Below, in pieces: positions 12,411 to 45,504 of a stretch of DNA of 64,000 nt (position 1 is the stretch's first letter; each line of letters starts with the position of its first letter). A model generated the notes under the pieces. The model saw only the letters and a program-made list of their open reading frames with translations. It searched no databases and had not been told where the DNA came from. The position numbers and the translations under genes were made by a program. The stretch is from Gammaproteobacteria bacterium. Its GTDB lineage: Bacteria > Pseudomonadota > Gammaproteobacteria > Pseudomonadales > Azotimanducaceae. The stretch is taken from positions 9,534 to 73,533 of the forward strand of contig JAFIFJ010000138.1 in the NCBI GenBank assembly GCA_020832085.1, given 5' to 3'.

Positions 12411-12905
12411 TCACCGCTCGATGCGATAGGGCGTCTCGAACTCGTGCACCTCGGTATCGTCGTCAGAGCTGTCGTCGGCGATGCGATCGATGACGGCGAA
12501 GAGGGTCGCTTCGGCCAGCGGCGTCAGGACGGCGTGCCAGGTTCCGGGCAGGTAGTTGACGCCTTCGCCGCCACTGGCGAGGAAGGCGCGTGGCTGGCCA
12601 GGACGACCTTCCTCATCCGGGCAGACGATGGCCAGATAGGGATCGGCAGCTAGGGGCATGAAAGCCTGCGAGCCGAGTCGGTGACGCTCCACGAAAGTGA
12701 GCTCGAAGGGCAGCTTCCTGGCCACCGAGCGGAACAGGCTCAGACCGAGGCGACCGTCGGCGGCACGCAGCCGCGCCAGATCGTGCCAGCGTCCGCAGCG
12801 CTCCTGATTGATGATGCGGTCCGGTTCGCCGCTGGCTGCAATGACGTCACCAAAGGCAGCGAAGGCCGCCGGGTCCAGGGCTTCGATTCGGATCACGCGG
12901 GTCAT
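12411..12905 (-). CDS. allA: Ureidoglycolate lyase
   Basis: MTRVIRIEALDPAAFAAFGDVI...GSQAFMPL...NYLPGTWH is the AllA fold signature (164 aa). It is the C-terminal part of ORF 12411..13601. Its start overlaps the upstream stop (ATGA). Confidence 0.8.
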   Translation of the reverse strand: MTRVIRIEALDPAAFAAFGDVIAASGEPDRIINQERCGRWHDLARLRAADGRLGLSLFRSVARKLPFELTFVERHRLGSQAFMPLAADPYLAIVCPDEEGRPGQPRAFLASGGEGVNYLPGTWHAVLTPLAEATLFAVIDRIADDSSDDDTEVHEFETPYRIER

Positions 12906-15154: not shown

Positions 15155-15170
15155 TGGGCAGACCTTTGCA
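15155..15170 (+). promoter_or_regulatory. Candidate sigma54 (-24/-12) promoter for uraH
   Basis: TGGGCAGACCTTTGCA: TGG-N9-TGCA with GG-N10-GC spacing. It begins 2 nt beyond the divergent puuE ATG and about 97 nt upstream of the uraH ATG. Confidence 0.45.
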
Positions 15171-15266
15171 GGAGAGGAGCCAGGGGCTGGGACTGCGGCG
15201 CTTCGACCGGGCGTGCGACTTGCATCGCGTCGGGTTAACGTCAGCATGTCTGCCAGCGAGGAAACC

Positions 15267-15626
15267 ATGACCCGAGGCTATCTCACCACTCACGTCCTCG
15301 ATACCGCCCGGGGGCGGCCGGCGGCGGACCTGACGCTGCACCTCTACCGGCTCGTGGACACAGGGCGGGAGCATCTGGCCACGGTAGTCACCAACGCCGA
15401 TGGCCGCTGCAACGATCCGATCCTGGCCGGTGAGGCCTTCGAGGTCGGTCGCTATGAACTGGAGTTCGAGGTGGGCGCCTGGCTGGCAGCCGGCGGGCGC
15501 GCCGAAGGCAGCCCGGTCTTCCTGGACGTGGTGCCCATACGTTTCGGGATTGGGGATGCTTCGGCCCACTATCACGTACCGCTGCTCCTTTCGCCTTACG
15601 GTTACACGACCTATCGGGGCAGTTGA
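15267..15626 (+). CDS. uraH: 5-hydroxyisourate hydrolase (transthyretin-like)
   Basis: MTRGYLTTHVLDTARGRPAA...HYHVPLLLSPYGYTTYRGS with the diagnostic C-terminal YRGS. GAGGA Shine-Dalgarno before the ATG. Confidence 0.9.
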   Translation: MTRGYLTTHVLDTARGRPAADLTLHLYRLVDTGREHLATVVTNADGRCNDPILAGEAFEVGRYELEFEVGAWLAAGGRAEGSPVFLDVVPIRFGIGDASAHYHVPLLLSPYGYTTYRGS

Positions 15627-15716
15627 AAACATCGCCCGCACTGCGGGCTCCCACCATGGGCGGGCAGCGGCTCCGGTCGTGTGGCTGCACCTGACCACTG
15701 CGTTGCGCTGCAGCCA
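15626..15716 (-). ncRNA. Hypothetical sigma54-dependent small RNA (~90 nt)
   Basis: Inferred only. A perfect sigma54 promoter at 15742-15727 predicts a start near 15716. The transcript has a 5' stem (GGCUGCA...UGCAGCC) and ends in the REP hairpin GCCCGCAGUGCGGGC followed by GAUGUUUU. No coding potential. Confidence 0.25.
15631..15660 (+). repeat. REP-like palindromic element, copy 1
   Basis: ATCGCCCGCACTGCGGGCTCCCACCATGGG with a perfect GCCCGC-ACT-GCGGGC hairpin (15634-15648). About 27/30 identical to the reverse complement of 18484-18512. Resembles Pseudomonas-type GTGGGAGC REPs. Confidence 0.55.
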
Positions 15717-15744
15717 GGACAGTGCCAGCAAGGACAGTGCCAGC
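15716..15744. repeat. Tandem direct repeat (14-mer x2, period 15)
   Basis: AGGACAGTGCCAGC a AGGACAGTGCCAGC in the uraH-puuD spacer. The junction of the two copies creates the minus-strand sigma54 consensus. Confidence 0.8.
15727..15742 (-). promoter_or_regulatory. Consensus sigma54 promoter on the minus strand (no downstream gene)
   Basis: Minus strand reads TGGCAC-TGTCC-TTGCT, a full match to TGGCAC-N5-TTGCW. It points away from puuD and toward the 3' end of uraH. Confidence 0.55.
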
Positions 15745-15760
15745 TGGCCCGTATCCTGCT
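15745..15760 (+). promoter_or_regulatory. Candidate sigma54 promoter for puuD
   Basis: TGGCCCGTATCCTGCT (TGG-N9-TGCT), about 38 nt upstream of the puuD GTG. It sits back-to-back with the minus-strand element through the palindrome CCAGCTGG. Confidence 0.45.
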
Positions 15761-15797
15761 TCGTCGGTGGCGCTGACCGTACCTTGGGGAGACGTTC

Positions 15798-17030
15798 GTG
15801 ATCGACACAGTCCTGCTGCTGGAGTGGGCTGAACTGGCGCTGCGGTGGCTGCATGTGATCACCGCCGTGGCCTGGATCGGTTCCTCCTTCTATTTCATTG
15901 CGCTGGATCTCGGACTGCGCCGGCCGGGGACGCTCCCGGACGGGGTGGCCGGTGAACAGTGGCAGGTCCATGGCGGGGGCTTCTACCACCTGCAGAAGTA
16001 CAGCGTGGCGCCGGCAGCCCTGCCGGAACGGCTGGTCTGGTTCAAGTGGGAGAGCTACAGCACCTGGCTGTCGGGGTTTGCGCTGCTGATCCTGGTCTAC
16101 TACGTGGGGGCAGAGTTCTACCTCATCGATCATGCCCGTCGGCCGCTGTCGCCGACGATCGCCATCATCATCTCGTTAGGATCCCTGGGCGTCGGCTGGC
16201 TGGTCTACGATCGTCTCTGCAGGAGCGCCCTGGGGCGCCACGACACCGCGCTGATGGTGACCCTGTTCGCGCTGCTGACGGCGGCGGGCTGGGCCTACAC
16301 GGAACTGTTCACCGGCCGTGCCGCGCTGCTGCATCTCGGTGCGCTCACGGCCACCATCATGTCGGCCAACGTCTTCCTCGTCATCATCCCCAAGCAGAAG
16401 ATCGTGGTGAGGGAGCTCAAGGCCGGGCGGGCGCCGGATCCCGCCCTGGGCAAGCAGGCAAAACAGCGTTCCACCCACAACAACTATCTGACGCTGCCCG
16501 TCATCTTCCTGATGCTGTCGAACCACTACCCGCTGGTGTTCGCCACGCCCTACAACTGGCTCATGGCCAGTCTGGTGTTTCTGATGGGGGTGACGATCCG
16601 CCACTTCTTCAACAGCATTCACGCCGGTCGCGGCCGTCCCTGGTGGACCTGGCTGGCCACCGCCTTGCTGTTTGCCGTCATCATCAAGCTGTCATCCCTG
16701 CAGCCGCCACCGGAAGCGGGTGGGGAGCTTCCGGTGTCCGCGCTGCGCCATCTGCAGGCCGAGGGCTTCGAAGAGGTGCAGATCACGCTGCTGATGCGTT
16801 GCGTCATGTGCCACGGGGATCATGCAGCCTGGCCAGGTCTGAACAGTGCCGCCCGCAGCGTCAAACTCGACACGCCCGAGCGCATCGCGGCCCAGGCCCG
16901 GGCCGTCTATCTGCATGCGGGCGTCAGCCACGCCATGCCGCCGGGGAATCGAACCTACATGACCGCTGCGGAGCGGGCGGGCATTGTCACCTGGTATCGG
17001 GCTGCAGCGCCTGCAGCAGGCGCGCCTTGA
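15798..17030 (+). CDS. puuD: Membrane urate hydroxylase PuuD (cytochrome c type)
   Basis: Multi-TM protein, WLHVITAVAWIGSSFYFIALD...GGGFYHLQKY, with a C-terminal CVMCHG haem-c motif in a urate-pathway context. GTG start. Confidence 0.85.
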   Translation: MIDTVLLLEWAELALRWLHVITAVAWIGSSFYFIALDLGLRRPGTLPDGVAGEQWQVHGGGFYHLQKYSVAPAALPERLVWFKWESYSTWLSGFALLILVYYVGAEFYLIDHARRPLSPTIAIIISLGSLGVGWLVYDRLCRSALGRHDTALMVTLFALLTAAGWAYTELFTGRAALLHLGALTATIMSANVFLVIIPKQKIVVRELKAGRAPDPALGKQAKQRSTHNNYLTLPVIFLMLSNHYPLVFATPYNWLMASLVFLMGVTIRHFFNSIHAGRGRPWWTWLATALLFAVIIKLSSLQPPPEAGGELPVSALRHLQAEGFEEVQITLLMRCVMCHGDHAAWPGLNSAARSVKLDTPERIAAQARAVYLHAGVSHAMPPGNRTYMTAAERAGIVTWYRAAAPAAGAP

Positions 17031-18366
17031 TCGAAGGGCCGGGAACCGGTTCGAAGGCGAAGCTCGCGCCGAGGTACCGCGACTGATTGGCAGGCAGGGC
17101 GATCCAATCCGAGGTCAGCAGCCGGTAATGCCGACCTTCCTCGGGCTGCGGCCAGACGCCATGCAGGGTATCGCCGCCGCGCTCGGCCAGGGGCCGCTGC
17201 TGCTGCGGCGTTGCCCGGTCGATGATGCTGCGCAGGGTGGCGGCGTCCACCTGCACCTGCACAAGACCGTTGTCGAAGCGCAGGAAGCGGTCGAAGCGGT
17301 AGCGGCTCACGTCCCCGGCGGGCAGACCGGTGCCGAAAGAGGTGTGGTTGAGGAAGACCGCATCCACCTCAGGATCCTGCTGCAGCTGCCGGCTGGCCCA
17401 GCGGGCGGCCGCCGGCAGGGTCATGGCCTCGTCGATCCGGCCCACGGTCCGGCGCTCCGCAGTCGTGAGCGTGGTGTCGCGCAGCTGCTGCACGGCCTCC
17501 GCCATGGCCCCATCCTCAGGACCTCGCGCTGCCATGCGCGTCAGGACCACTTCCGGCTCGCCTGCCCTAGCGCTCTCCGAACTGAGGCGGATGGTGGCCA
17601 GGGTGAAGTGCTCGGCCCCGGATCCGGAATGGACGTAGGGAATGCCGGCCACGGCGTCTTCGAGCAGCAGGTGATCGTGGGCGCCGAAGAACAGCAGCGG
17701 CCGTGGTCCTCGGGCGAGCACCTTGCCGACTTCCAGGTCAGCCTCGAGGCCGGCGTGGCTGGCCAGCACCACGTGTCCGGCAGCGCCGGCCAGGGTCTGC
17801 CAATGCTCTGCGATCCAGGCTGCGGGATCAGGCAGCTGCAGGGTCTCCCGCAGCCGCGCAGGCCAGGTGGCGAGCTGATTGGTGGTGACTCCCACCACCC
17901 GCAGACTGATGTCACCCAGGGTGACGTCAACACTCGGGCGCGCCACTGGGGAACCGTTGGCAAGAGCCACGTTACCCAGCAGCTCAATGTCGAGGGCGGC
18001 GGCCCGACGGACCAGCTCCTCGGGATCGATCAGGTCGAACTCGTGGTTGCCGATGTTGAACACCACCGGTCCGAAGCCGCGCAGCCGTTCGAGCAGTGCC
18101 CAGTCGAGCTCGCCGTCGCTGCGGGCGGCCATGGGGTCGCCGGCCTCGAAAAGATCGCCATTGATCAGGATCAGACGTGGCGTCGCCGGATCATCTGCGG
18201 CGAGTCGGGTCAGGCTACCGAGCAGGCGCGGATACTGATCGACGGCCGAATGCAGGTCGGCCAAGTGAATGATCTGGAACGCTGCCGGCAAGGCGGCAGG
18301 GCGGCATGCGACCAGCGAGATCAGGACCAGGGCGGCCACAACCATGCGGCAGGTGGATGGAATCAT
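16987..18366 (-). CDS. Lipoprotein 5'-nucleotidase / metallophosphoesterase (UshA-like)
   Basis: MIPSTCRMVVAALVLISLVAC (lipobox LVAC), HLADLHS, INGDLFEAG, NIGNHEFD metallophosphatase motifs and a C-terminal nucleotidase-like domain. Start at the internal Met of ORF 16987..18558. Confidence 0.75.
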   Translation of the reverse strand: MIPSTCRMVVAALVLISLVACRPAALPAAFQIIHLADLHSAVDQYPRLLGSLTRLAADDPATPRLILINGDLFEAGDPMAARSDGELDWALLERLRGFGPVVFNIGNHEFDLIDPEELVRRAAALDIELLGNVALANGSPVARPSVDVTLGDISLRVVGVTTNQLATWPARLRETLQLPDPAAWIAEHWQTLAGAAGHVVLASHAGLEADLEVGKVLARGPRPLLFFGAHDHLLLEDAVAGIPYVHSGSGAEHFTLATIRLSSESARAGEPEVVLTRMAARGPEDGAMAEAVQQLRDTTLTTAERRTVGRIDEAMTLPAAARWASRQLQQDPEVDAVFLNHTSFGTGLPAGDVSRYRFDRFLRFDNGLVQVQVDAATLRSIIDRATPQQQRPLAERGGDTLHGVWPQPEEGRHYRLLTSDWIALPANQSRYLGASFAFEPVPGPSIKARLLQALQPDTR

Positions 18367-18483
18367 GAACTGTTCCCGGTTTGGCGTAGCGCAGCATCGA
18401 TGACCATGTGTGAAGACTCCAAGGTTACGGTAGCGGAAATTCGCCCGCTCTTGCAGGGTGAGGTCACGCGGCCGCAGACAGCT

Positions 18484-18512
18484 CCCATGTGGGAGCCTGC
18501 TGTGCGGGCGAT
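18484..18512 (-). repeat. REP-like palindromic element, copy 2 (inverted relative to copy 1)
   Basis: Reverse complement ATCGCCCGCACAGCAGGCTCCCACATGGG versus copy 1 ATCGCCCGCACTGCGGGCTCCCACCATGGG. The flanking GCTCCCA (18481-18487) extends it into a GCTCCCA-TG-TGGGAGC palindrome. Confidence 0.55.
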
Positions 18513-18551
18513 CGACCCTAGCGCGCGCTCCCGCAGGGCGGCCCTGAAGCG

Positions 18552-18572
18552 GGCGCACCGTTTTGGGGCGCC
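18552..18572. promoter_or_regulatory. Possible NtrC-type enhancer site
   Basis: GGCGCACC-GTTTT-GGGGCGCC. Its core GCACC-N5-GGGGC resembles the NtrC half-sites GCACC-N5-GGTGC. Centred about 80 bp upstream of the permease sigma54 element. Confidence 0.25.
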
Positions 18573-18639
18573 AAGGACATGCTTCGGCTGACGGCGGTCC
18601 CTAGGATGAGTCGGGATCGGCGGTGCTGCCATGGGGGTA

Positions 18640-18655
18640 TGGTGCGAGCATTGCA
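18640..18655 (+). promoter_or_regulatory. Candidate sigma54 promoter for permease-xdhABC
   Basis: TGGTGCGAGCATTGCA (TGG-N9-TGCA with -12 TTGCA). It lies inside the 5' end of track ORF 18631.., which argues for a later start codon. Confidence 0.5.
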
Positions 18656-18726
18656 TGGTGGTCGCCGCATCGTGCCGGGACTGCGCCGACGCTGGGTCGG
18701 CGGCAGGGTCTGGTCGGGAGGGTGAG

Positions 18727-20049
18727 TTGGGATTTCTCGCGCGCTACTTCGAGTTCGAGGCGCTGGGTACGAACCTGCGTACTGAGATGGTGGCCGGGCT
18801 CACCACCTTCCTGGCCATGGCCTACATCCTGTTCGTGAACCCGAACATTCTCTCCCTGGCGTCGACGGCGCCGGAACTGGGCATGCCTCGGGACGCGGTG
18901 TTCACTGCCACCGCCCTGGCTGCGGCCTTTGGCTGTCTGCTCATGGGCATCCTCGCCCGCTATCCGGTGGCGCTGGCACCGGGCATGGGCCTGAATGCCT
19001 TCTTCGCCTACACCGTCGTGCTGGAGATGGGCATTCCCTGGCAGACCGCCCTGTCCGGAACGCTGGTCAGTGGTGTTCTGTTCCTCATTCTCTCCATCTC
19101 CGGTCTGCGGGAGCGGGTGGTCAATGCCATTCCCATGGCGCTGAAGCACGCGGTGGCAGCCGGAATCGGACTGTTCATTGCCTTCATCGGCCTGCAGAAC
19201 GCAGGCATCGTGGTGCGCAACGAGGCCGTGCTGGTATCCCTCGGGCCGCTGGGAGCCCCGCCGACATTGCTGGCCATCTTCGGCCTGGCCGTGACCGCAC
19301 TGCTGGTGGCGAGGGGTGTGGGCGCCGGCATCTTCTTCGGCATGGTGGCCACGGCTGTGGCCGGGGTAGTGACCGGTGTCATCCCAGCACCTGAGGCCAT
19401 CGTGGCTCCCGTGCCTGACCTGTCGCCGACCTTCGGTGTGGCTCTGCTGAATCTCGGCAATCTGCTGCAGCCGGAGCTGGCCGTGGTGGTGCTGACCATG
19501 CTTTTCGTGGACTTCTTCGATACCACGGGCACTCTGGTGGGCGTGGCCAATCAGGCCGGACTGGTGAAGGAGAATCGCCTGCCCAGAGCGGGGCGCGCGC
19601 TTTCCGCTGACGCCATGGCCACCATGTTCAGCGGCCTGGTGGGGACCTCGTCCACCACCGCCTACATCGAATCGGCCTCCGGCGTGGCGGCGGGTGGTCG
19701 CAGTGGCTTCACCGCCGTGGTGGTGGGCCTGCTGTTTCTGCTGGCATTGGCCTTCTCGCCCCTGCTTGGCGTGGTGACGGCGGCCGTCACGGCGCCGGCA
19801 TTGATCCTGGTGGGCGCGCTGATGACCACGTCGCTCAGGCATGTGCCCTTCGAGCGCATCGAGATCGCGCTGCCGGTGTTCATGACCCTGATCATGATGC
19901 CGCTGACCTTCAGCATCGCCGAGGGCATCGCAATCGGCTTCATCACCTACGCCATCACCCTGCCTGCTGCCGGACGCATTCGTGAGCTGCACCCGCTGAT
20001 GGCGGTCCTGGCGCTGGTGTTCCTGGCCTACTTTCTGTTTCTGCACTAA
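18727..20049 (+). CDS. NCS2-family purine permease (AzgA/PurP type; hypoxanthine/guanine/adenine)
   Basis: ...FLARYFEFEALGTNLRTEMVAGLTTFLAMAYILFVNPNIL matches the AzgA-type N-terminus. Start proposed at TTG 18727, preceded by GGAGG 5 nt upstream; the track ORF begins at 18631. Confidence 0.85.
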   Translation: MGFLARYFEFEALGTNLRTEMVAGLTTFLAMAYILFVNPNILSLASTAPELGMPRDAVFTATALAAAFGCLLMGILARYPVALAPGMGLNAFFAYTVVLEMGIPWQTALSGTLVSGVLFLILSISGLRERVVNAIPMALKHAVAAGIGLFIAFIGLQNAGIVVRNEAVLVSLGPLGAPPTLLAIFGLAVTALLVARGVGAGIFFGMVATAVAGVVTGVIPAPEAIVAPVPDLSPTFGVALLNLGNLLQPELAVVVLTMLFVDFFDTTGTLVGVANQAGLVKENRLPRAGRALSADAMATMFSGLVGTSSTTAYIESASGVAAGGRSGFTAVVVGLLFLLALAFSPLLGVVTAAVTAPALILVGALMTTSLRHVPFERIEIALPVFMTLIMMPLTFSIAEGIAIGFITYAITLPAAGRIRELHPLMAVLALVFLAYFLFLH

Positions 20050-20070
20050 TGACCTGTACTGAGGCTTGCC

Positions 20071-21546
20071 GTGGCTGAGCTTGCGCACGAGAGACCCGAT
20101 GCCATCCGCTTTCTGCTCAACGGCGAAGCGGTGGCAGTGGCGGGGCTGGCCGCCACCACCACGGTGTTGGAATACCTGCGCGAGCACGCAGGGCTCCTCG
20201 GCACCAAGGAAGGCTGTGCGGAAGGCGACTGCGGAGCCTGCACGGTGCTCATGGCAGAGTGGCCCGGCGACGACGCGCCGTTGACGTTCCGCTCCATCAA
20301 CAGCTGCATTCGCCTGCTGCCCACCATCGATGGCTGCGAGCTTTTGACCGTGGAGGGGCTGGCCGACGCTGATGCCCTGCACCCGGTGCAGCAGGCCATG
20401 GTGGAGCATCATGGCTCCCAGTGCGGGTTCTGTACGCCCGGCTTCGTGATGTCGTTGGCAGGGCTTTATCTGCAGACGCCGGACCCTGATCGGGAGCAGG
20501 TCCTGCGGTCCATTGCCGGCAACCTTTGCCGCTGTACCGGCTACCGGCCCATCATCGACGCCGGTCTGGCCATGGGTTCAATGCCGGAACCTTCACTCTG
20601 GCGCCGGCAGAACGTGGACACACCCAAGCGTCGAGCTGCGCTGCGCGCCCTGCAGCGGGAACAGACCCTGACGTTGCCGGATTACGTCGCTCCACGCAGC
20701 CTCGACGAGCTGGCGGCCCTGCGTATGGCCCAGCCCGAAGCGCGGCTGCTGGCGGGTGGCACCGATCTCGGCTTGGAGGTGACCAAGGCGCTGGCAACCC
20801 TGCCCATGCTGATTCACGTCGGCGGGGTGCCGGAACTGCTGCACATGGAATCGACCGGGGCCGGGCTCGTCATCGGCGCGGCTGTACCTCTCAGTGATGC
20901 CTGGGAAGTCATCGTCGAGCACTTTCCCGGGTTTGGCGAAGTGGCCGAGCGCTTTGCGTCGCCACCGGTATGCCATTCCGGAACCCTCGGCGGCAACGTG
21001 GCCAATGCTTCGCCCATCGGTGACGGCATGCCGGTCCTGCTGGCTGTGGACGCCCGATTGCAGCTGCGCCGGGGAGACCACAGTCGCGTGCTGCCGCTGG
21101 CGGACTTCTACCTGGGCTATCGGCAAACGGCCCTGCAGGAGGGTGAGTTCCTCTGCGCCATCGAGATTCCCTGGCCGCAGCCGCATTGGCACTATGCCGG
21201 CTACAAACTCGGCAAGCGCTGGGACCAGGACATTTCCGCGGTCTGCGGCGGCTTCGGGCTGGCCGTTGCCAACGGTCGCATCGAAGGGGCCCGACTGGGC
21301 TTCGGGGGGATGGCGGCGATACCGTCACGGGCCCGTGCCGCCGAAGCGGCCTTGACGGGCGCGGCGCTGGAGCCAGAGACCTTCGAAGCCGCCGCCGCCG
21401 CGCTGGCCGAAGACTTCGAGCCCATCGACGACTTCCGCGCGAGCGCCGCCTATCGCCTCAAGGGGGCCGGCAACCTGCTGCGACGCTTCGGCCGGTCATT
21501 GCTGGCAGGCGATGAGCAGATCTCGGTTCGAGAGGTGTTCCGATGA
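20071..21546 (+). CDS. xdhA: Xanthine dehydrogenase small subunit ([2Fe-2S] + FAD)
   Basis: KEGCAEGDCGACTV and GSQCGFCTPGF iron-sulfur motifs, NLCRCTGYRPI, then an FAD-binding domain (LLAGGTDLGLEV). GTG start. Confidence 0.9.
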   Translation: MAELAHERPDAIRFLLNGEAVAVAGLAATTTVLEYLREHAGLLGTKEGCAEGDCGACTVLMAEWPGDDAPLTFRSINSCIRLLPTIDGCELLTVEGLADADALHPVQQAMVEHHGSQCGFCTPGFVMSLAGLYLQTPDPDREQVLRSIAGNLCRCTGYRPIIDAGLAMGSMPEPSLWRRQNVDTPKRRAALRALQREQTLTLPDYVAPRSLDELAALRMAQPEARLLAGGTDLGLEVTKALATLPMLIHVGGVPELLHMESTGAGLVIGAAVPLSDAWEVIVEHFPGFGEVAERFASPPVCHSGTLGGNVANASPIGDGMPVLLAVDARLQLRRGDHSRVLPLADFYLGYRQTALQEGEFLCAIEIPWPQPHWHYAGYKLGKRWDQDISAVCGGFGLAVANGRIEGARLGFGGMAAIPSRARAAEAALTGAALEPETFEAAAAALAEDFEPIDDFRASAAYRLKGAGNLLRRFGRSLLAGDEQISVREVFR

Positions 21547-21577
21547 GCGCCGCCCGCGCTGACTGCAGGCAAGCCTC

Positions 21578-23836: not shown

Positions 23837-23870
23837 AAAGTCGTTTCTGGATTGCCGCAGGTCGGATTCG

Positions 23871-24851: not shown

Positions 24852-24971
24852 CCCGGCTCTTTCAAGAACGGCGAACCTGTTTCAGCTTCATTGCGGGTCG
24901 TCATGGTCCGGTAACGCCCCATTCTGGGGCAATCTTCTCCTTCGTCGCCCGAAAACTATGCCCTTAAGGTA

Positions 24972-24987
24972 TGGCATGGAAGCTGCA
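24972..24987 (+). promoter_or_regulatory. Candidate sigma54 promoter for the PNP-like/TonB-receptor operon
   Basis: TGGCATGGAAGCTGCA (-24 TGGCAT, -12 CTGCA, correct GG-N10-GC spacing), about 47 nt upstream of ATG 25034. Confidence 0.55.
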
Positions 24988-25033
24988 GATCGACCTCCAT
25001 CGTCGGGTGGCTGGGCAAGAGGGCAGGTCGGGT

Positions 25034-25969: not shown

Positions 25970-26141
25970 ACGGGATGGATGCGAAGCCGATGGGGCGCGG
26001 CTTCGAGCGGGGCAGCAGGACGGAGCGGGAAGCTCCGGCAAGGGGTAACGGAGTCAAGCATGGCGCAGGTTGAGCCCCTCTCGGGGCTGTGTCCTTACTC
26101 GTGCGTGGCGCGTCGATGGGTGTTCTCGAGGAGTTCTCACT

Positions 26142-28520
26142 ATGGGGTTGCAACGTAACAAACGGCCATGGGGCGGCGGCTTGCTCGTCTCTGCAGCATG
26201 GGCTTGCGCGTTCGTGGCGCCGGTTCTGGGGCACGCGCAAGGTAATTCCGGCATGATCGACGAGATCGTCGTCACCGGCGAAGTTGTGGATCGACTCGGC
26301 ATCATTCCGGACGAGGAGGTGGACTCCATTTTTGGATCGAGCCGCTCCCTGCTGGAAACGCCGCGTTCCGCCACCATGATCAGTTCAGAGCTGCTCGAGC
26401 AGTACAACGCCCAAGACATCAACGATCTGGTGCGGTTCTCGCCCGGAGTCTATACCAGCTCCTTCTTCGGGGTGGCCGGCAACCTCGACGTACGCGGATC
26501 ACCGGGTGACAACTACTTCCGCGGCATGAAGCGCATCGAGAACCCCGGCAACTTTCCGACGCCCATCGGCGCCTCGGACCGGGTGGATATCGTTCGTGGA
26601 CCGTCGTCTCCGGTCTACGGCCCTGGCAAGGTCGGTGGCTATCTGAATTTCGTGCCCAAGTCGGCCCGGGCGGATACCGGGCGCTTTATGCGTGGCGTGC
26701 GCGGTTCGGCCACGGCCACCTGGGGCTCCCACGGCAAGCGCGTCGGTGCCGCTGAATTCGGCGGTCCCATGAAAGTGGGCGATACCGAGGCTGGATACTA
26801 TGTGTATGGCCTCTACGAAGACTCCAGCAGCTACTACCGGCACAACTTCCAGGATCAGATCATCCTGCAGTCCACCTTCGACTTCGACCTGACTGATACC
26901 TTGAATTTCACCGTCGGGCAGCAGTACCACAACTACAAAGGTACTGAGAACGCTGGCTGGAACCGCATCAGTCAGCGGCTGATCGATGACGGCATCTATC
27001 TGGCGGGCAGCCCACTGGTGCCGCTGGATACTGATGGAGACGGCTTCATCAGCGGCCAGGAAGTGCTGGCGGCGGGCAGCCTGTTCGTCTTCCACCCCTT
27101 TGGTTCACCGGTGGACAATCCGCTGTTTCATCTCGACCCGGCTACCGTCCGGGAGGTGGAGATCAGTCGCAAGCAGGTGCTGATCGATGACATCGACCGC
27201 ATCAAGTCCGACAGCTTCGCCTTCTTCGCGGATCTGGAATGGGAGGCCAGTGATCAGCTCAGGGTCACCAATAAGTTCTTCCTGGACTATCTCAGCCGCG
27301 ACAAGCGTGCTTCCTACGGCTTTTCCCAGGACAATCAGGCGGTGTCCATCGAGAACAAGATCCTGGTGCAGTTCTCCCAGGAGTATGAGTGGGGCAGCCT
27401 CGATGCATCCCTGGCACCGTCCTATCGCTACTACCGGGCGACCGATCGCGGCGACTTCGACTTCGAGTACTTCGACCGTCGCGACCTGACCCTGCCCCGG
27501 GGCACGCCGGTGGATCGCATTCTCACCTCGCTGCAGGACAACATCCAGACGCCCTGGACGGCGGATGAGCGCTCGACCCTGCACAATCCAGGCGTGGGGC
27601 TGTTGGTGGATGCCGAGTTCTTCGACCGGGCCTTCATCATCCTCGGCTGGCGTTACGACTGGCTGGACCTGAAGTCCTTGGCCCGCCACGACAACGATCG
27701 CCGCGACAGCAAGACCTTCAAGGCGCCGTCCTGGTCGGCGAGCCTGTCGGTGGATATCGGTGCCGGCCTGCGTCCCTATGTCACCTGGGCTGAGCAGTCG
27801 ACCCTCATTACCAACCAGACCGGTGGGGTGCCCGCCAACCTGGTCCGGGATGGGGATGCACTGGATGATTCCGAACTCAGGGAAGTCGGCATCAAAGGCC
27901 TGCTGTTCGACGGGCGGGTGTACGTCACTGCGGCTCACTACGAGCAGAAACGTTCCAGCTTCAGCGCCCAGACCCTCACGGTGCTCGCCACCGAGAGCAA
28001 GGGACAGGAACTGGAACTGCGCTGGGTGGTGAACGACGAACTCAGCATCACCGGAGCGGCCACCTGGCAGACCACGAAGTACAACCCGGTGACGGACCGC
28101 TTCATCTTCGCCAGTCCGGCGTTGACCGGCCTGCCTCCGGAACTCAGCTACGGCGGCACCATCGGGTCAACCGTGGGTCTGGTGGGCGGTGATGCAGTGA
28201 AGCGGGCCGGTGTGCCCGAGTTCCTCCTCAGCATCTTCGCCAACTACGAACTGCGGGAGTGGGATTTCTCCCTGGGTCTGACTCAGCAGGACAGCGTGGA
28301 CTCGGGGGTCGGCGGTGCAGTCCGGCTGCCCAGTGCCACCCTGGTGACGGCCTCCGCGGGCTGGTCACGGGGCCCCTGGCGGCTGCAGGCCAGCGGCACC
28401 AACCTGCTCAATGAGCGCTACTTCCGCGGGCTGTTCCCGGATATCTTCGGCGACTCGGTGGTGTTCCCGGAGCGTCCCCGTTCCTTCGAGTTGCGCGCCA
28501 CCTACGCGTTCGGTGGTTGA
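26142..28520 (+). CDS. TonB-dependent outer-membrane receptor
   Basis: Signal peptide, TonB-box-like IDEIVVTG, plug motifs (RSATMISSELL, DINDLVRFSPGV, RGPSSPVYG) and a long beta-barrel. The C-terminus ends ...RATYAFGG, two Gly beyond the usual terminal aromatic residue. Confidence 0.85.
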   Translation: MGLQRNKRPWGGGLLVSAAWACAFVAPVLGHAQGNSGMIDEIVVTGEVVDRLGIIPDEEVDSIFGSSRSLLETPRSATMISSELLEQYNAQDINDLVRFSPGVYTSSFFGVAGNLDVRGSPGDNYFRGMKRIENPGNFPTPIGASDRVDIVRGPSSPVYGPGKVGGYLNFVPKSARADTGRFMRGVRGSATATWGSHGKRVGAAEFGGPMKVGDTEAGYYVYGLYEDSSSYYRHNFQDQIILQSTFDFDLTDTLNFTVGQQYHNYKGTENAGWNRISQRLIDDGIYLAGSPLVPLDTDGDGFISGQEVLAAGSLFVFHPFGSPVDNPLFHLDPATVREVEISRKQVLIDDIDRIKSDSFAFFADLEWEASDQLRVTNKFFLDYLSRDKRASYGFSQDNQAVSIENKILVQFSQEYEWGSLDASLAPSYRYYRATDRGDFDFEYFDRRDLTLPRGTPVDRILTSLQDNIQTPWTADERSTLHNPGVGLLVDAEFFDRAFIILGWRYDWLDLKSLARHDNDRRDSKTFKAPSWSASLSVDIGAGLRPYVTWAEQSTLITNQTGGVPANLVRDGDALDDSELREVGIKGLLFDGRVYVTAAHYEQKRSSFSAQTLTVLATESKGQELELRWVVNDELSITGAATWQTTKYNPVTDRFIFASPALTGLPPELSYGGTIGSTVGLVGGDAVKRAGVPEFLLSIFANYELREWDFSLGLTQQDSVDSGVGGAVRLPSATLVTASAGWSRGPWRLQASGTNLLNERYFRGLFPDIFGDSVVFPERPRSFELRATYAFGG

Positions 28521-28582
28521 TCGATGAGGCCGAGGCACGCCTGCCGGGACGCGGGCGTGCTTCGGTAGTACCGGAGAGAGGC

Positions 28583-29608
28583 ATGGACTACACGGAATTC
28601 CTGCGGCGGGTTCCGAAGGTGGAGCTGCACTGTCACCTGGAAGGGACCGTGCGCGCCGCCACGTTCGCCGATCTGGCCCGCAAACACGGCGTAACCCTGC
28701 CCACCAGCGAGGTGGACAGCCTGTACGAGTACGACACCATTGAGGCCTTCCTCGAGATTTTCGGTCTGGTCGCTTCGACCCTGATCGACGAAGAGGACTT
28801 CGAGCGCGTGGCCTTCGAGTCCCTGGAAGACGGCCAGCGCCTGGGCAACCTCAAGTATCGCGAGATGTTCTTCAATCCCACGCTGCATACCCGTCGAGGG
28901 GTCCCTTACCGGACCGTGGTGGATGGGCTGGCGGCCGGCATCCGTCGCGCTGACCGTGAACTTGGCGTCGGTTGCCGACTTATTGCCGACGTCTACCGGC
29001 AGGACAGTCCCGCCATGGCCCTGGCCATGGTGGAAGAAGTGCTCGCTCATCGTCCTGACGAGGTCATCGGACTGGGGATGGACGGTGCGGAGGCGCCGGA
29101 CCCACCCGAGCGTTTCGCCGCGGCCTTTGCCCGGGCCCGTGCCGGCGGCCTGCGTCTCACCAGTCATGCCTGCGAGGACGCCCCGCCGAAGAACATCATC
29201 ACCTGTCTGGATCTTCTCGGCTGTGAACGCATCGACCACGGCTATCACATCCTGGCGGACGAAGCCGTGGTGCGACGTGCTCTGGACGCAGGGCTCTACT
29301 TCACCTGCTGTCCGACGGCCACCGCGCGGGTCTACGGCTGGCCCGATCTCAGCCGGCATCCCATCGGCGGCATGGTGAAGGCGGGCCTGAACGTGACGCT
29401 CAATTCCGACGATCCCACCATGTTCCACACAGACATCGGCCGGGAGTTCGTGGATCTCTGCACGGCGCTGGATTACGGCCCGGAGCAGGTGCGGCAGTTC
29501 TGCCTGAACAGCGTCGACGGCAGCTGGCTCGATGATGCCGACAAGGCGCGACTGCGAAGAGAGGTGGCGGCCGAGTTCGACGCTCTGCATGCGGAGATCG
29601 CGCCATGA
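28583..29608 (+). CDS. Adenosine/adenine deaminase family protein, paralog 1 (cytoplasmic)
   Basis: MDYTEFLRRVPKVELHCHLEGT (HxH), SHACED in place of AHAGEE (Glu kept), ERIDHG, TLNSDDP. No signal peptide. Confidence 0.8.
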   Translation: MDYTEFLRRVPKVELHCHLEGTVRAATFADLARKHGVTLPTSEVDSLYEYDTIEAFLEIFGLVASTLIDEEDFERVAFESLEDGQRLGNLKYREMFFNPTLHTRRGVPYRTVVDGLAAGIRRADRELGVGCRLIADVYRQDSPAMALAMVEEVLAHRPDEVIGLGMDGAEAPDPPERFAAAFARARAGGLRLTSHACEDAPPKNIITCLDLLGCERIDHGYHILADEAVVRRALDAGLYFTCCPTATARVYGWPDLSRHPIGGMVKAGLNVTLNSDDPTMFHTDIGREFVDLCTALDYGPEQVRQFCLNSVDGSWLDDADKARLRREVAAEFDALHAEIAP

Positions 29609-30030
29609 AGCCCTTGGCAGGGCTAGGTGTCCTCGTCGGCACCCTGGCAGTGATGGGCTGTACTGCAACGCCTCCTGCGGTGAGCGCAGTGGACTGTGGC
29701 GGCATGCAGAGTGCGTTGCGCAGCGAACTGTTCTTCGGCATGACCCATCGTCGCGGCGCGGCCATCGCTGAAGCCGATTGGGAGGACTTTCTGGCCAACT
29801 CGGTCACAGCGCGTTTTCCTGACGGGCTCAGCGTCATCGAGGCGCGTGGCCAGTGGCGCAACCCGGGCACGGGTGCGCTGGTGAGACAGCCGGCGCGGGT
29901 CCTGCTCATCATCCATCCTGACGATGCCCGCAGCGATGCGTCCCTGGAAGCGCTGCGCGAGGATTACAAGGCCCGCTTCGATCAGATCTCCGTGCTGCGG
30001 GTGACCCAGCCGGTGTGCATGGCGTTCTGA
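29605..30030 (+). CDS. DUF3574-like lipoprotein
   Basis: MKPLAGLGVLVGTLAVMGC lipobox. SELFFGMTHRRGAAIAEADWEDFLANSVTARFPDGLSVIEARGQW matches my recollection of DUF3574. ATGA overlap with paralog 1; its stop abuts the paralog 2 ATG. Confidence 0.5.
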   Translation: MKPLAGLGVLVGTLAVMGCTATPPAVSAVDCGGMQSALRSELFFGMTHRRGAAIAEADWEDFLANSVTARFPDGLSVIEARGQWRNPGTGALVRQPARVLLIIHPDDARSDASLEALREDYKARFDQISVLRVTQPVCMAF

Positions 30031-31197
30031 ATGCGCACGGCCCGAGGAGTTCGAAAAGACATGGCAGATCGAATCACGGCTCGGGGCGCTGGACTCATGC
30101 TACTGCTCGGGCTCGTACTGGCGGCGCCCCTTCAGGCTCATGCTGGCGCAGCCGATCCTGGCGCGGTCGCGGACTTCATCATGGGTCTGCCGAAGACTGA
30201 GCTGCACATTCATCTCGAAGGCACGCTGGAAGCGGAAGACTATCTGGCGCTGATGGCTCGCAATGGGCGCGATTCGCCCTATGGGGATGCGGCAGCCGTC
30301 CGCGACAGACTCACCTACGCTCGCGATCTCGACACCTTCATCGAAGTGTATGAGGAACTGCTCGGTGCCATGGAGACGGCCCATGACTTCGAGCAGGTGG
30401 CGATGACCTACATCGAGCGGGTTTCGGCCCAGGGCGTGATCTACGTCGAAATGTTTTTCGATCCGCAGATGCATACCTACCGGGGCGTTGCACTAGAGAC
30501 GGTGATGGAAGGTCTGTATCGGGCCCACGCGCGGGCGCCGGTGGAATACGGCGTAGAGCTCTGGTTCATCGCCTGTTTCAACCGGGATCGGTCGGCAGCG
30601 TCTGCCCTTCGTCACCTCGAGGCCCTCGCGCCCTATCAGGACATCGTCATTGGTGTGGGTCTGGACAATCCCGAGGAGATCGGTTTCCCGGAAAAGTTCG
30701 CCACCGTGTTTGCTCGCGCTGCCGCCATGGGATTCCGCCGGACTACCCATCTCGATGTGGATGTCCCCAACACCATCGAGCATCACTGGTCGGCCCTTCG
30801 CCTGCTGGACATCGAGCGCATCGATCATGGCCTGAACGTGGCGGATGACCCGGGGCTGATCGTCGCGGTGCGCGAGGCCGGTATTGCACTGACGGCCTGT
30901 CCGACGCTTCTGTATCGCGATATTCCGGGTCGGCTCGAGGGTCGACTGGCGCGGATTCGAACCTTGCTCGATGCCGGTATCGAGATATCCCTGCATTCGG
31001 ATGATCCGGGCCTGATGCGTGATCTTTACGTGGGTGATCTGTATCTGCTGGCGCACCTCGAAGGGGGATTCACCCGTGCGGAGATCGTCGCTTTGGCCCG
31101 CAACAGTCTCCTCAGCGCCTGGGTGGACGAGGACCGGCGCAGGATCTGGCTGCAGGCCTTCGATGCCTGGCTTCAGGCGCATCCCGTAGCCTTCTGA
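30031..31197 (+). CDS. Exported adenosine-deaminase-superfamily protein, paralog 2 (non-canonical active site)
   Basis: Signal peptide ...GLMLLLGLVLAAPLQAHA/GA, then ELHIHLEG (HxH), ERIDHG and SLHSDDP. The HAGE motif is replaced by THLDVD (Glu position is Val). Alternative start at 30061. Confidence 0.7.
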   Translation: MRTARGVRKDMADRITARGAGLMLLLGLVLAAPLQAHAGAADPGAVADFIMGLPKTELHIHLEGTLEAEDYLALMARNGRDSPYGDAAAVRDRLTYARDLDTFIEVYEELLGAMETAHDFEQVAMTYIERVSAQGVIYVEMFFDPQMHTYRGVALETVMEGLYRAHARAPVEYGVELWFIACFNRDRSAASALRHLEALAPYQDIVIGVGLDNPEEIGFPEKFATVFARAAAMGFRRTTHLDVDVPNTIEHHWSALRLLDIERIDHGLNVADDPGLIVAVREAGIALTACPTLLYRDIPGRLEGRLARIRTLLDAGIEISLHSDDPGLMRDLYVGDLYLLAHLEGGFTRAEIVALARNSLLSAWVDEDRRRIWLQAFDAWLQAHPVAF

Positions 31198-31221
31198 CCG
31201 AGCCGCCGTTCCCGCCCGGTT

Positions 31222-32256
31222 TCATGGCCGGGCATGTGCCAGCAGGTAACGGTCCAGCTCTGCCAGCTTTTCCGCTCTGGCGGGCGCCGGCAGAAAGCTG
31301 GCCTCGAAGGCGTGGCGGTTGATCCGGGCTGCCTGCTCTGCAGTCAGCCGCAGATGCTCATGCAGGGCGATGAAGTTCTCGTTCAGGAAGCCGCCGAAGT
31401 AGGTGGGGTCGTCGGAATTCACGGTGACCCTGACGCCCGCAGCCAGCAATTGGAGCAGATTGTGGTTCGCCATGCTGTCGAAGACCTTGAGTTTGACGTT
31501 CGACAGCGGGCAGACGGTGAGGGGAATCCCTTCGCGGGACAGGCGCGCCAGCAGGGCCGGATCCTCGGCGCTGCGTACGCCATGGTCGATGCGCTCGACG
31601 CCGAGAAGATCGAGGCTGTCGGCGACGAAGCCCGCCGGACCCTCCTCGCCGGCATGGGCGGTGGCCCGGTATCCTAACGAGCGTGCCCGGGCGTAAAGTT
31701 CCGTGAAGTCTGCCGGCGGGTGGCCGAGTTCCGAGCTGGCCAGACCGATGGCGACGAAACCATCCGGGCAGGCCCGGTGGGCCTGCTCCAGGACCTCGAG
31801 GCCATCGCGCTCCGGCAGATGGCGCAGCAGACTCAGAATGAGCAGCACCGACTGTCCCCAGCCTGCCTGGGCTTCGGCCATGGCCTGCTTGAACCCGGAC
31901 ATCATCGTCGCCAGCGATACGCCGCTCGGGAGGTAGGACTGGGGTTCGATCATGATTTCGGTGTGCGTGATGTGCTGATCCCGGCAGGCGCTGAGGTAGT
32001 CGAGCATCAGCAGATAGAAGTCCTCCTCGTCGCGGATCACCGATGTGCCCATGTAGTAGAGATCGAGAAAACTCTGCAGATTCTCGAAGGCATAGGCGTC
32101 AGTCACGTCTTCGACGCTCCGGTAGGGAATGTCGAACCCGTGCTTCGCTGCCCGGTCCAGCAACCGTGAGGGCCTGAGTGTCCCGTCGAGGTGGACGTGC
32201 AGCTCCGCCTTGGGCATGGCGGATATCCACGAGGCGAAGGCAGCGCTGCTCTGCAT
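31222..32256 (-). CDS. Adenine/adenosine deaminase, Pseudomonas ADE-like paralog 3 (cytoplasmic)
   Basis: MPKAELHVHLDGTL, AYAFENLQSFLDLYY, TAHAGEEGP, ERIDHGVR, CPLSNVKLKVF, TVNSDDPTYFGG. Very like the PA0148-type adenine deaminase as I recall it. ATG at 32256 (track ORF starts at TTG 32268). Confidence 0.8.
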   Translation of the reverse strand: MQSSAAFASWISAMPKAELHVHLDGTLRPSRLLDRAAKHGFDIPYRSVEDVTDAYAFENLQSFLDLYYMGTSVIRDEEDFYLLMLDYLSACRDQHITHTEIMIEPQSYLPSGVSLATMMSGFKQAMAEAQAGWGQSVLLILSLLRHLPERDGLEVLEQAHRACPDGFVAIGLASSELGHPPADFTELYARARSLGYRATAHAGEEGPAGFVADSLDLLGVERIDHGVRSAEDPALLARLSREGIPLTVCPLSNVKLKVFDSMANHNLLQLLAAGVRVTVNSDDPTYFGGFLNENFIALHEHLRLTAEQAARINRHAFEASFLPAPARAEKLAELDRYLLAHARP

Positions 32257-32260
32257 GGCG

Positions 32261-33763
32261 TTACTCAAAGCTGATCCCGAAGTTCCGCAGCGCGTAGCCG
32301 TAGGTTTCTGCCTCCACTTCCCACAGTCCGGCGCGCCAGTCGCCGATGCCGAAGCGCTGCTCGAAGGCCCGGATGTCGGCGTCGTACTCTGCCAGCAGGC
32401 GTTGCTTGATGGGTTCCTCGACGAAAGCGTGTTCCAGACTGTTGCGCCCCACCTGCACCAGCTCAGGCCAGGACAGATTGAAGCGGGTGACGGCCACGTA
32501 GTACTCGTCGCTCATGTTGGAATCCCACATGCCGCGATCGTCGGTGTTCAGCGCCACCGGGATGCCGAGGCGCAGGAACTGGGGGAAGGGGTGCAGGTCG
32601 AGATCCGGCGTGTACTCCAGCAGGTGGTTGCTGATCAGGTTGTTCTCGAGCAGGAAGGGCCCGTGGCGCAGCAGCAGCAGCGTGTCGTCGTCATGAATGA
32701 CGTCGATGCCGTGGCCGATGCGGTCGGCACCGAGCAGCAGGGTTTCCCGGACATGGCGCGAGGGCCGATCCGTCTCGCCGGCATGGATGGACAGGCGAAT
32801 GTCCGGGTACTTCCGCCGCATCTCGGCGAAGACCTGCCGGAAACGTTCCGGGTGGCCGCGGTCGTCGTCTTCGCGGCCGGCCATGTTGACGGCCACCCAC
32901 AGATCCCGATAGCGATCGACGAAGGCATAGGCATCGCGGACACGCTGCTCGGCGTCCGGGGTGAAGCGCAGCACGGTCTGCTGGAAACGCACCACCACGC
33001 CGGTGGCCAGAGCGTCGGGCTGCTGCAGCCGCGCCCGGTAGATGTTGACCACGTCGTCCACGGCAATCGGTTCGCCATCGGGATCGACGAAGCCGGCCGC
33101 GCCAGTCTGGGTCTCCAGGTAGCGCAGGCCCTCGGCGCCATAACGCTTCATGTTCTCCACCAGCAGTTCGGCATTGATGTGGGGATTGCGGAACAGTTCA
33201 CCGATGCGGTTCCAGATGCGCTCGAAGAACTCGTCCCGGCCCTCGTGGGGCAGCTCCAGACGCAGGCTGGACAGCCAGGCCGCCCGGGTGTCGTCGTCGA
33301 GGCCGTCGAGGGGCTCGTACTCGCGCTGCTTGCACTCGTCGAGGGTGGCGTAGGTGGAGGCCTGAATGGTCTGGAAGTACAGCAGGTAGGGGCGGGGCCG
33401 AACTTCACCGATGCGCGCCGGATCGGCGGGACGACCGGTGCCGCTCGGACAGTTGTGGATCATGGTCTTGGTGTAATAGCGGTAGCCGCCATTGCGGTCC
33501 GGGTCCACGGCGAGGGCGTACCACCATTCGGAGCGGCTGGATCCGCCGAGGTGGTTGTGGATGTCGCCGCCCTTGGGCATGGCGTAGAGGAAGCGGTAGA
33601 GCTCCTCGGGGCTGGCATCCTGCTTGATGCGCTCGAAGCGTTCGGCGAACGCGAGCTGGCGGCTGTCCTCGAATGCGCTGACCGGCAGTGCCGCTGACAG
33701 CGCCACGGCAGCAAGGGCAAGCAGGGCGAAGCCCCGGTAGAGGACAGCGAGAGATCGGATCAT
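32261..33763 (-). CDS. Exported ADGF/ADA2-like adenosine deaminase, paralog 4
   Basis: Signal peptide MIRSLAVLYRGFALLALAAVALSAALPVSA/FE, a long N-terminal extension, GGDIHNHLGG, SIHAGETD, RIGHG, ALNTDDRGM. Start at the internal Met of ORF 32261..33928. Confidence 0.75.
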   Translation of the reverse strand: MIRSLAVLYRGFALLALAAVALSAALPVSAFEDSRQLAFAERFERIKQDASPEELYRFLYAMPKGGDIHNHLGGSSRSEWWYALAVDPDRNGGYRYYTKTMIHNCPSGTGRPADPARIGEVRPRPYLLYFQTIQASTYATLDECKQREYEPLDGLDDDTRAAWLSSLRLELPHEGRDEFFERIWNRIGELFRNPHINAELLVENMKRYGAEGLRYLETQTGAAGFVDPDGEPIAVDDVVNIYRARLQQPDALATGVVVRFQQTVLRFTPDAEQRVRDAYAFVDRYRDLWVAVNMAGREDDDRGHPERFRQVFAEMRRKYPDIRLSIHAGETDRPSRHVRETLLLGADRIGHGIDVIHDDDTLLLLRHGPFLLENNLISNHLLEYTPDLDLHPFPQFLRLGIPVALNTDDRGMWDSNMSDEYYVAVTRFNLSWPELVQVGRNSLEHAFVEEPIKQRLLAEYDADIRAFEQRFGIGDWRAGLWEVEAETYGYALRNFGISFE

Positions 33764-33821
33764 GGTGCAGGCTCCTCGTGATGCTGGTCTGGTTTTGGAC
33801 TGAATCCCCAACCTTTGGGCA

Positions 33822-33837
33822 TGCACGCAGCGTACCA
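33822..33837 (-). promoter_or_regulatory. Candidate sigma54 promoter for the ADGF-like/ADE-like operon
   Basis: Minus strand TGGTACGCTGCGTGCA (TGG-N9-TGCA). It lies in the 82-bp gap between the csiV stop and the ADGF-like start, about 58 nt upstream of that ATG. Confidence 0.5.
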
Positions 33838-41420: not shown

Positions 41421-41436
41421 TGGCACCATGCCTGCA
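41421..41436 (+). promoter_or_regulatory. Candidate sigma54 promoter (distal) for the GH13_18 phosphorylase
   Basis: TGGCACCATGCCTGCA: perfect -24 TGGCAC, -12 CTGCA, correct spacing. It lies in the SSS/GH13 divergent gap. Confidence 0.55.
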
Positions 41437-41461
41437 TTCGATTGCTGAGGTGATAACGCCT

Positions 41462-45475: not shown

Positions 45476-45504
45476 CGTGCCCGCAGAGGCGTCTCCCGGT
45501 GCTT

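Follow-up and report, generated by a model that had tools for sequence, protein, structure and literature searches.

Purine catabolism is already known to be controlled by sigma-54 and NtrC. In Burkholderia cenocepacia H111, mutant RNA-seq placed xdhAB, the urate oxidase cluster and the allantoicase gene under both proteins during nitrogen limitation (PMC5491218). In Escherichia coli, an EcoCyc-derived list gives sigma-54 promoters for xdhA and ygfK (S2 Table of PMC12316311). A comparable purine and nucleoside catabolic block was analysed here from its DNA sequence alone. It spans 11.6-33.8 kb of a 64,000-nucleotide stretch (the window; 66.5% G+C) of contig JAFIFJ010000138.1, from a gammaproteobacterial assembly. 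As in B. cenocepacia, no activator gene is linked to the catabolic genes (PMC5491218), and as in E. coli, sigma-54-type promoters would precede the xanthine dehydrogenase genes and neighbouring purine genes (PMC12316311). The block adds outer-membrane nucleoside-scavenging and ADGF-like deaminase operons, which are outside the Burkholderia set. Sigma-54-type promoters probably drive three or more of these transcription units (perhaps four) and would be activated by an enhancer-binding ATPase whose gene is unlinked.

Together, the genes of this 20-kb block would convert extracellular nucleosides and purine bases into ammonia-yielding products. The three units would be permease-xdhABC, the PNP-like/TonB-receptor/deaminase operon and the ADGF-like/deaminase operon, with puuD as a possible fourth. 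At each of them, the sigma-54 holoenzyme would sit on the -24/-12 elements as a closed complex and would fire only once an enhancer-binding ATPase, encoded elsewhere in the genome, had bound upstream and remodelled the complex. The activator would most likely be of the NtrC type for permease-xdhABC, and possibly for the PNP-like operon, acting through a GCACC-N5-GGTGC dyad about 100 bp upstream. Nitrogen limitation would then switch the block on. We infer sigma-54 binding, the identity of the activator and its signal from the sequence elements, their scores, position, orientation and conservation, and the lack of a local regulator gene.

The enterobacterial NtrC promoters (glnAp2, astC, rutA, nifLA) share with the window sites the GG-N10-GC frame, TTGCA or TTGCT at -12 and dyads of the TGCACC-N5-GGTGCA type about 100-140 bp upstream, a range that includes the dyad positions of glnAp2. 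The rut operon, like the block, serves nucleobase catabolism for nitrogen. The window differs from the enterobacteria in having a single recognisable dyad instead of a pair, dyad flanks of C...G instead of T...A and a -12 element that is often CTGC or GTGC.

The initial annotation had proposed that the whole block was wired to sigma-54, from five TGG-N9-TGC(A/T) 16-mers placed before uraH, puuD, permease-xdhABC, the PNP-like operon and the ADGF-like operon. The coordinates and strands of all five were found to be right. Each lies upstream of and co-oriented with its unit after correction of the start codons (puuE ATG 15153, uraH ATG 15267, puuD GTG 15798, permease TTG about 18730, PNP-like ATG 25034, ADGF-like ATG 33763). 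The chance rate of 6e-5 per position that had been attached to the pattern was about 8-10 times too low. Both strands of the window hold 72 matches, against 23.5 in shuffles, and the rate per strand-position is 4.9e-4 in coding and 1.2e-3 in intergenic DNA; codon structure inflates the count. Fifteen matches are intergenic and ten of these had been overlooked, the better ones lying at 15727-15742 (minus strand), 41421 (plus) and 45505 (minus). A coding TGGCAC with a correctly spaced TGC, of which none had been noticed initially, is present at 60816-60831 (minus) inside an acyl-CoA dehydrogenase gene. The excess of matches in the block nevertheless survives the corrected rate. The block contains just 1,127 bp of intergenic DNA, and five co-oriented intergenic matches were seen where 0.55 would be expected at the coding rate.

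Weight-matrix scoring was first performed with 29 Salmonella sites (Table 3 of PMC3844500), and the PNP site ranked 1 of 128,000 positions with a score of 17.7. This matrix was dropped as too narrow: A at position 5 and C at position 4 are invariant in it, and every site without TGGCA is penalised. It was replaced by a matrix of 67 diverse known promoters from the Barrios compilation (S2 Table of PMC12316311), restricted to the core positions and scored against the composition of the window. In this set, position 5 is A in 46 of the 67 promoters, and TGGCCC, TGGTAC, TGGCGC and even AGGTGC and GGGCGC occur among the -24 elements. The training promoters themselves have a median score of 15.0 and a 10th percentile of 9.4.

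With the diverse matrix, the top score in the window (17.9, rank 1) fell to a minus-strand element at 15725-15742, between uraH and puuD. The PNP site scored 15.8 (rank 5), the permease site 14.0 (rank 7), the puuD site 13.4 (rank 8) and the ADGF site 12.7 (rank 10), all four within the range of known sigma-54 promoters. They are intergenic and co-oriented with their genes, with predicted leaders of about 27-65 nt. A second island in the uraH spacer (15209) reached 10.8 (rank 19), and the uraH site of the initial annotation only 8.3 (rank 52). The comparison of intergenic with coding hit rates, which had been suggested as a check, showed intergenic enrichment: at a score of at least 13, the 6.1 kb of intergenic DNA holds 6 matches and the 57.9 kb of coding DNA holds 2 (p = 1.8e-5). 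A high-scoring site at 8553 was reclassified as coding, since it lies inside a signal-peptide coding region.

Orthologous loci were gathered from five or six related lineages (L001-L003; L084-L088; L089/L090, L091, L094/L095), the nearest relatives being metagenome-assembled genomes labelled Gammaproteobacteria or Pseudomonadales. In total, 96 loci were fetched for comparison. All of the matrix matches scoring at least 12 in the relatives fall in orthologous spacers (5/5 in the 20.9 kb of L089, 4/4 in L094, 2/2 in L002 and 1/1 in L091). Conservation in orthologous spacers, also put forward as a check, was found for the PNP, ADGF and permease sites, which are kept as islands in diverged DNA.

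The putative promoter of the PNP-like/TonB-dependent receptor/adenosine deaminase operon (TGGCATGGAAGCTGCAGA) is located at 24972..24989 on the plus strand, with a predicted transcription start near 24998 and the start codon at 25034. The xdhC-PNP spacer could not be aligned by blastn, and TGGCAYG-N4-CTGCW is the sole conserved island in it. Orthologues of the site were found in L001, L094/95, L089/90 and L002; it recurs in every genome with the operon, in five sequence variants. In L091, where the receptor gene comes first, a canonical TGGCATAGACATTGCTGC (score 19.1) is found 80 nt upstream of that gene. A weak NtrC-like dyad (CGCCCCATTCTGGGGCA, 24915..24931), with 3 mismatches to TGCACCANNNTGGTGCA, is centred about 75 bp upstream of the predicted start. 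Weak dyads occupy the same place (-75) in L094 (CGCACCGTTTTTGTGCG) and L001, thus in three lineages with the window, and none was found at L089 or L091. As an activator site, this dyad is suggestive only.

The putative promoter of the ADGF-like/adenosine deaminase operon (TGGTACGCTGCGTGCATG, 33820..33837, minus strand) starts 8 nt past the csiV stop codon, with a predicted transcription start near 33811 and the start codon at 33763. It is identical at 18/18 positions in three genomes (window, L001, L003), and both flanks have diverged. In L002 and L089/90, TGGTACGTTTCCTGCTTC (score 14.6) occupies the same place after the csiV stop codon and is followed by an inserted cupin gene. Two variants were thus seen among six loci.

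The putative promoter of the permease-xdhABC operon (TGGTGCGAGCATTGCATG) is located at 18640..18657 on the plus strand. Transcription is predicted to start near 18666, and the likely start codon is a TTG near 18730 behind a GGGAGGG ribosome-binding sequence. The site is kept as TGGT.C-N5-TTGCATG in five lineages, in five variants; these vary only at position 5 and between the two elements. In L089/90, the rest of the permease spacer is unrelated and the sigma-54 core is still present. In sequence, the site resembles the NtrC-dependent nifLA promoter of Enterobacter cloacae (AAGGTGCACTCTTTGCATGG). An NtrC-type activator dyad (CGCACCGTTTTGGGGCG, 18554..18570), with one mismatch to the GCACC-N5-GGTGC core, is centred about 104 bp upstream of the predicted start (-104). 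Its counterparts were found at -102 in L084 (CGCACCGGATTGGGGCG), at -131 in L088/94 (CGCACCTTATTGGTGCG) and at -95 in L089/90 (CGCACCGACAAGGTGCG), the last two with perfect cores. Only six perfect cores occur in the 96 loci, and four of these are the permease dyads of L088/94 and L089/90.

The 75 nt between the permease -12 element and the TTG (18655-18729) are conserved above the level of the neighbouring genes in close relatives. This stretch is in frame in all genomes, with a 21-nt deletion in L088 and a 51-nt version in L089. An Rfam scan of the whole window gave no match, so the conserved leader of the permease gene matches no known riboswitch.

The candidate before puuD (TGGCCCGTATCCTGCTTC, 15745..15762, plus strand) has a predicted transcription start near 15771, ahead of the GTG start at 15798. 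Caulobacter and Azotobacter promoters in the Barrios compilation include -24 elements of its TGGCCC type. The initial proposal of a promoter here stands in part. The site scores well and has the same or almost the same sequence in L001, L084 and L088/94, that is in the window and three related lineages, but it is not present at the aligned position in the distant L089/90 (score 0.0). In a metagenome scan for PuuD, the relatives were only 60-64% identical and no general sigma-54 site was found upstream of their puuD genes. A YGGTATAGCCTTTGCACA with GG-N10-GC spacing was observed about 41 nt upstream of puuD in L035, L043, L051 and L057 (also in L042, L063 and L065). In these unrelated metagenomic lineages, it may represent an independent sigma-54-type puuD promoter.

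The minus-strand element of the same spacer (TGGCACTGTCCTTGCTGG, 15725..15742) is canonical (TGGCAC-N5-TTGCT) and antisense to uraH and puuD. With the puuD site it forms a back-to-back pair about a CAGCTG palindrome. It is kept as CTGGCAC-(CTGTC/CTTTC/CCTTC)-TTGCTG in all lineages covering the spacer, changes being confined to the stretch between its two elements, and in L089/90 it is the sole match of the uraH-puuD spacer. The element sits in a 15-bp tandem repeat (15711-15744). The repeats overlapping its -12 side are lineage-specific: the window has 2.3 copies of a 15-mer and L001 (1-64) has 4.9 copies of a 13-mer. In the window, the 15-mer generates a second, weaker site at 15710-15727. 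The element was also considered as an NtrC dyad and rejected, the spacing being wrong and the left half not conserved.

The uraH site (TGGGCAGACCTTTGCAGG, 15155..15172, plus strand) is a weak candidate that begins 2 nt from the puuE start codon. In the relatives, the corresponding TGG overlaps the puuE ATG and is followed nine bases on by TGC (L088, score 9.1; L089, 12.5) or by TGT (L084, 3.7); the window copy is displaced by 2 nt relative to them. The puuE start codon and ribosome-binding site, on the other strand, dictate part of this similarity. With its low score and no strict conservation, the 16-mer is unproven as a promoter, and the uraH promoter of the initial annotation was not upheld. 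A conserved island in the same spacer (GGGCGTGCGACTTGCATC, 15209..15226, plus strand), 58 nt before the uraH ATG, also has GG-N10-GC spacing and is kept in L084 and L088, not in L089/90. In sequence, it resembles the Klebsiella nifL promoter (AGGGCGCACGGTTTGCATGG). The idea that the whole block is wired to sigma-54 is therefore well supported for the permease-xdhABC, PNP-like and ADGF-like units and plausible for puuD, but doubtful for uraH.

Several observations weigh against sigma-54 promoters in the block. DNA of high G+C content yields chance matches, and nine coding matches score at least 12, one of them 16.0. The -24 elements of permease (TGGTGC) and puuD (TGGCCC) have no A at position 5, which is invariant in the 29 Salmonella sites; this objection is softened by the 21 of 67 diverse promoters that also miss it. 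The strongest and best-conserved site of the block, 15725-15742, faces away from any co-oriented gene, and neither this element nor the ADGF site has a recognisable activator dyad. The permease -12 element contains an ATG in frame with the gene in all genomes. Finally, the puuD and permease islands reach beyond the sigma-54 core in close relatives.

The first of these points could suggest that all of the matches are chance occurrences in GC-rich DNA. The abundance of the loose pattern, the low score and loose conservation of the uraH site and the 16.0-scoring coding site agree with such an origin. The intergenic enrichment, the confinement of the relatives' matches scoring at least 12 to orthologous spacers and the conservation of the sites as islands argue against it and make it extremely improbable for the set as a whole. 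Chance is contradicted for four of the five sites and remains the best reading for the uraH 16-mer alone.

The ATG in the -12 element raises another explanation, namely that the permease island is conserved as coding sequence. It would then hold the authentic initiation codon (ATG 18655) and the beginning of a longer permease, and the actual promoter would be found further upstream. Should translation indeed begin at this ATG, the permease site could not be a promoter. The ATG within TTGCATGG shares the reading frame of the permease in every genome, the distances that separate it from the TTG (75, 54 and 51 nt) are each divisible by three, and gene callers picked it in L084 and L090. It has no ribosome-binding sequence, however, which is found instead before the TTG (GGGAGGG or GGAGAG). 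Between the window and L089, the protein sequence of the putative N-terminal extension is not maintained, and the NtrC-type dyad stands at a fitting distance for a promoter at this spot. A longer permease thus appears very unlikely.

The extent of the islands in close relatives would also fit operators of an unlinked classical regulator (GntR, LysR or PucR type) acting on sigma-70 promoters, with the GG-N10-GC frame incidental. The puuD island is a near-palindrome of 34-40 bp around CAGCTG, conserved well past the sigma-54 core. In close relatives, the permease island covers TTGCCATGG..GGTA, with a direct repeat of ATGGTG 16 bp apart. Three loose matches also make TGG-N9-TGCA-N9-CCA frames. 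The five islands have no operator word in common, though, and share only the -24/-12 frame. The distant L089/90 retain only the sigma-54 core at the permease, PNP and ADGF sites, and the site scores equal those of known promoters. The TGCA-centred frames lack conservation in their right halves, as seen at the PNP site. A sigma-70 consensus scan of four spacers found no hexamer pairs, a search of low power in GC-rich DNA. Operators of this kind are considered quite improbable. The three TGCA-centred frames, all intergenic (15155-15182, 24972-24999 and 58952-58979), are overlapping plus- and minus-strand loose matches around a common central TGCA; chance would give about 0.5 such frames.

Sigma-54-type promoters being the preferred reading, the activator was considered. 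The absence of any regulator gene between 12.4 and 34 kb, as claimed initially, was borne out by gene and family annotation and by a six-frame signature search. No GAFTGA or activator Walker A motif was found in six frames of the window, nor did the window, L089/90, L094 or L091 show an activator gene within 10 kb of the operons. LexA (6.9-7.5 kb) and Fur (47.1 kb) are the only DNA-binding proteins identified anywhere in the window. Neither rpoN nor ntrC is among the genes of the window.

NtrC had been guessed as the remote activator. The conserved permease dyad strengthens this guess for one unit. The PNP dyads are weak (3-4 mismatches), and no NtrC dyad with four or fewer mismatches was found at the ADGF, puuD or opposite-strand sites. 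The block could instead be activated by one or more dedicated purine- or nucleoside-sensing enhancer-binding proteins encoded elsewhere, at least the PNP-like and ADGF-like operons responding to substrate and not to nitrogen status. The lack of an NtrC-like dyad at the ADGF and opposite-strand sites, together with the weakness of the PNP dyad and its absence in L089 and L091, is in keeping with such proteins. E. coli offers a parallel in ygeV, a sigma-54 activator gene kept beside the xdh/ygf purine genes. No such gene occurs inside the window block or the relatives' loci, nor within the 10 kb searched around the operons, in contrast to this E. coli cluster. Perfect NtrC cores also stand upstream of the permease site, and NtrC has a precedent in Burkholderia (PMC5491218). 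Dedicated activators are therefore retained as a possible, if somewhat unlikely, alternative to NtrC.

The occurrence of sigma-54 and NtrC in the organism is also suggested by an intergenic canonical site outside the purine block (TGGCACGGGATCTGCT, 45503-45520, minus strand). The segment 45622-45638, which with 1 mismatch is the window's best match to the 17-bp NtrC consensus, has its centre at -136 of this site, and a second NtrC-like box (45591-45610) lies at about -106. Two NtrC boxes upstream of a -24/-12 site form the classical glnAp2-like layout. The site looks like a classical nitrogen-regulated promoter, and the arrangement at 45503-45638 argues that the organism has both proteins. It is located upstream of an HAD/S6PP-like phosphatase gene (44609-45502, minus) and an unannotated gene of 444 amino acids (43359-44693, minus), which possibly act in sugar-phosphate or compatible-solute metabolism. 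A PAS-histidine kinase gene (62829-64000, plus) was also noted, cut by the end of the window.

The minus-strand element between uraH and puuD has no obvious target. A transcript starting there would cross uraH in the antisense direction and, unless terminated, extend into the puuE operon. No promoter was recognised in the spacer of the puuE/allantoin operon itself, and the L089 spacer has no minus-strand match scoring at least 8. The element may be a working promoter firing antisense through uraH, which we regard as a tentative and rather doubtful proposal. If true, its product would be either an antisense RNA to uraH under nitrogen control or a leader of 435-560 nt for the puuE/allantoin operon, and with the uraH or puuD promoters the element would form a face-to-face sigma-54 pair within one catabolic pathway. 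Conserved canonical sigma-54 sites that are intragenic or antisense and face no gene are known from E. coli and Salmonella (PMC4591121, PMC3844500). The present element differs from these in being intergenic and back to back with a second site, and in that its transcript would traverse an entire short gene in antisense on the way to a co-oriented operon.

A small RNA transcribed from this element was not adopted. A hairpin (GCCCGCAGTGCGGGC) followed by a T-run is found at 15634-15648, on the minus strand only, directly past the uraH stop codon. The hairpin and T-run together (15648-15634) are not conserved in L084, L088 and L089, L084 retaining the hairpin and not its T-run. The spacers of these three lineages leave 10-150 nt for such an RNA.

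The gene order of the region is as follows. A cytoplasmic-type nucleoside phosphorylase gene (11608-12342, plus) is followed by the allantoin branch on the minus strand (12411-15153), which encodes a ureidoglycolate lyase, a bicupin and a PuuE-OHCU decarboxylase fusion, according to NCBIfam, Pfam and the gene calls of relatives. Then come uraH (hydroxyisourate hydrolase, 15267-15626, plus), puuD (membrane urate oxidase, 15798-17030, plus) and a metallophosphoesterase gene (16987 to about 18360-18558, minus). The purine permease gene, xdhA, xdhB and xdhC occupy about 18730-24851 (plus). The next operon (25034-31197, plus) encodes the PNP-like protein, which has a signal peptide, the TonB-dependent receptor, an adenosine deaminase, a DUF3574 protein and another adenosine deaminase. 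It is met on the minus strand by an adenosine deaminase gene and a secreted ADGF-like deaminase gene (31222-33763), beyond which are csiV and mfd (beyond 33846, minus).

Four adenosine-deaminase-family genes are thus grouped in one locus (28517-33763), two after the receptor gene and two on the minus strand, one of the latter being of the cytoplasmic type and the other ADGF-like with a signal peptide. The DUF3574 gene is also part of this locus, and the deaminase copy number varies among relatives. The secreted PNP-like protein (gene 25034-25969) belongs to a small unnamed family of 132 database proteins at E <= 1e-20, also found in Verrucomicrobiota (Puniceicoccaceae, Opitutales) and Cyclobacteriaceae. 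In the gammaproteobacteria compared here, its gene usually adjoins a TonB-dependent receptor gene. In L091, the PNP-like/receptor pair is followed by ExbB/ExbD/TonB genes, with a gene for a NUP-family nucleoside permease further downstream.

Two further matches were recorded outside the block. One (TGGCACCATGCCTGCATT, 41421-41438, plus, score 14.4) lies between divergent genes for a sodium:solute symporter and a GH13 alpha-amylase-family protein, with a leader of only about 16 nt before a possible TTG start. The other (TGGCACAGCGGCTGCACG, 60814-60831, minus) is the coding match of score 16.0, inside and antisense to the acyl-CoA dehydrogenase gene; it represents either chance or a sigma-54 site within a gene.

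As sigma-54/NtrC control of purine catabolism is already established in general, the gain here is incremental. What is specific to this locus is the outer-membrane nucleoside-uptake module, the lack of a local regulator and the conserved opposite-strand site, the last being the only element that could lead somewhere new. Sigma-54 control would be extended to an uncharacterised module for nucleoside uptake at the outer membrane, made up of a secreted PNP-like protein, a TonB-dependent receptor and secreted deaminases. The analysis yields a regulon prediction that can be tested, for an uncultured gammaproteobacterial lineage represented solely by metagenome-assembled genomes. Nucleoside harvest, purine uptake and oxidation, and part of urate breakdown would be placed under one sigma factor and a distant activator, and their joint control would probably be a response to nitrogen starvation.

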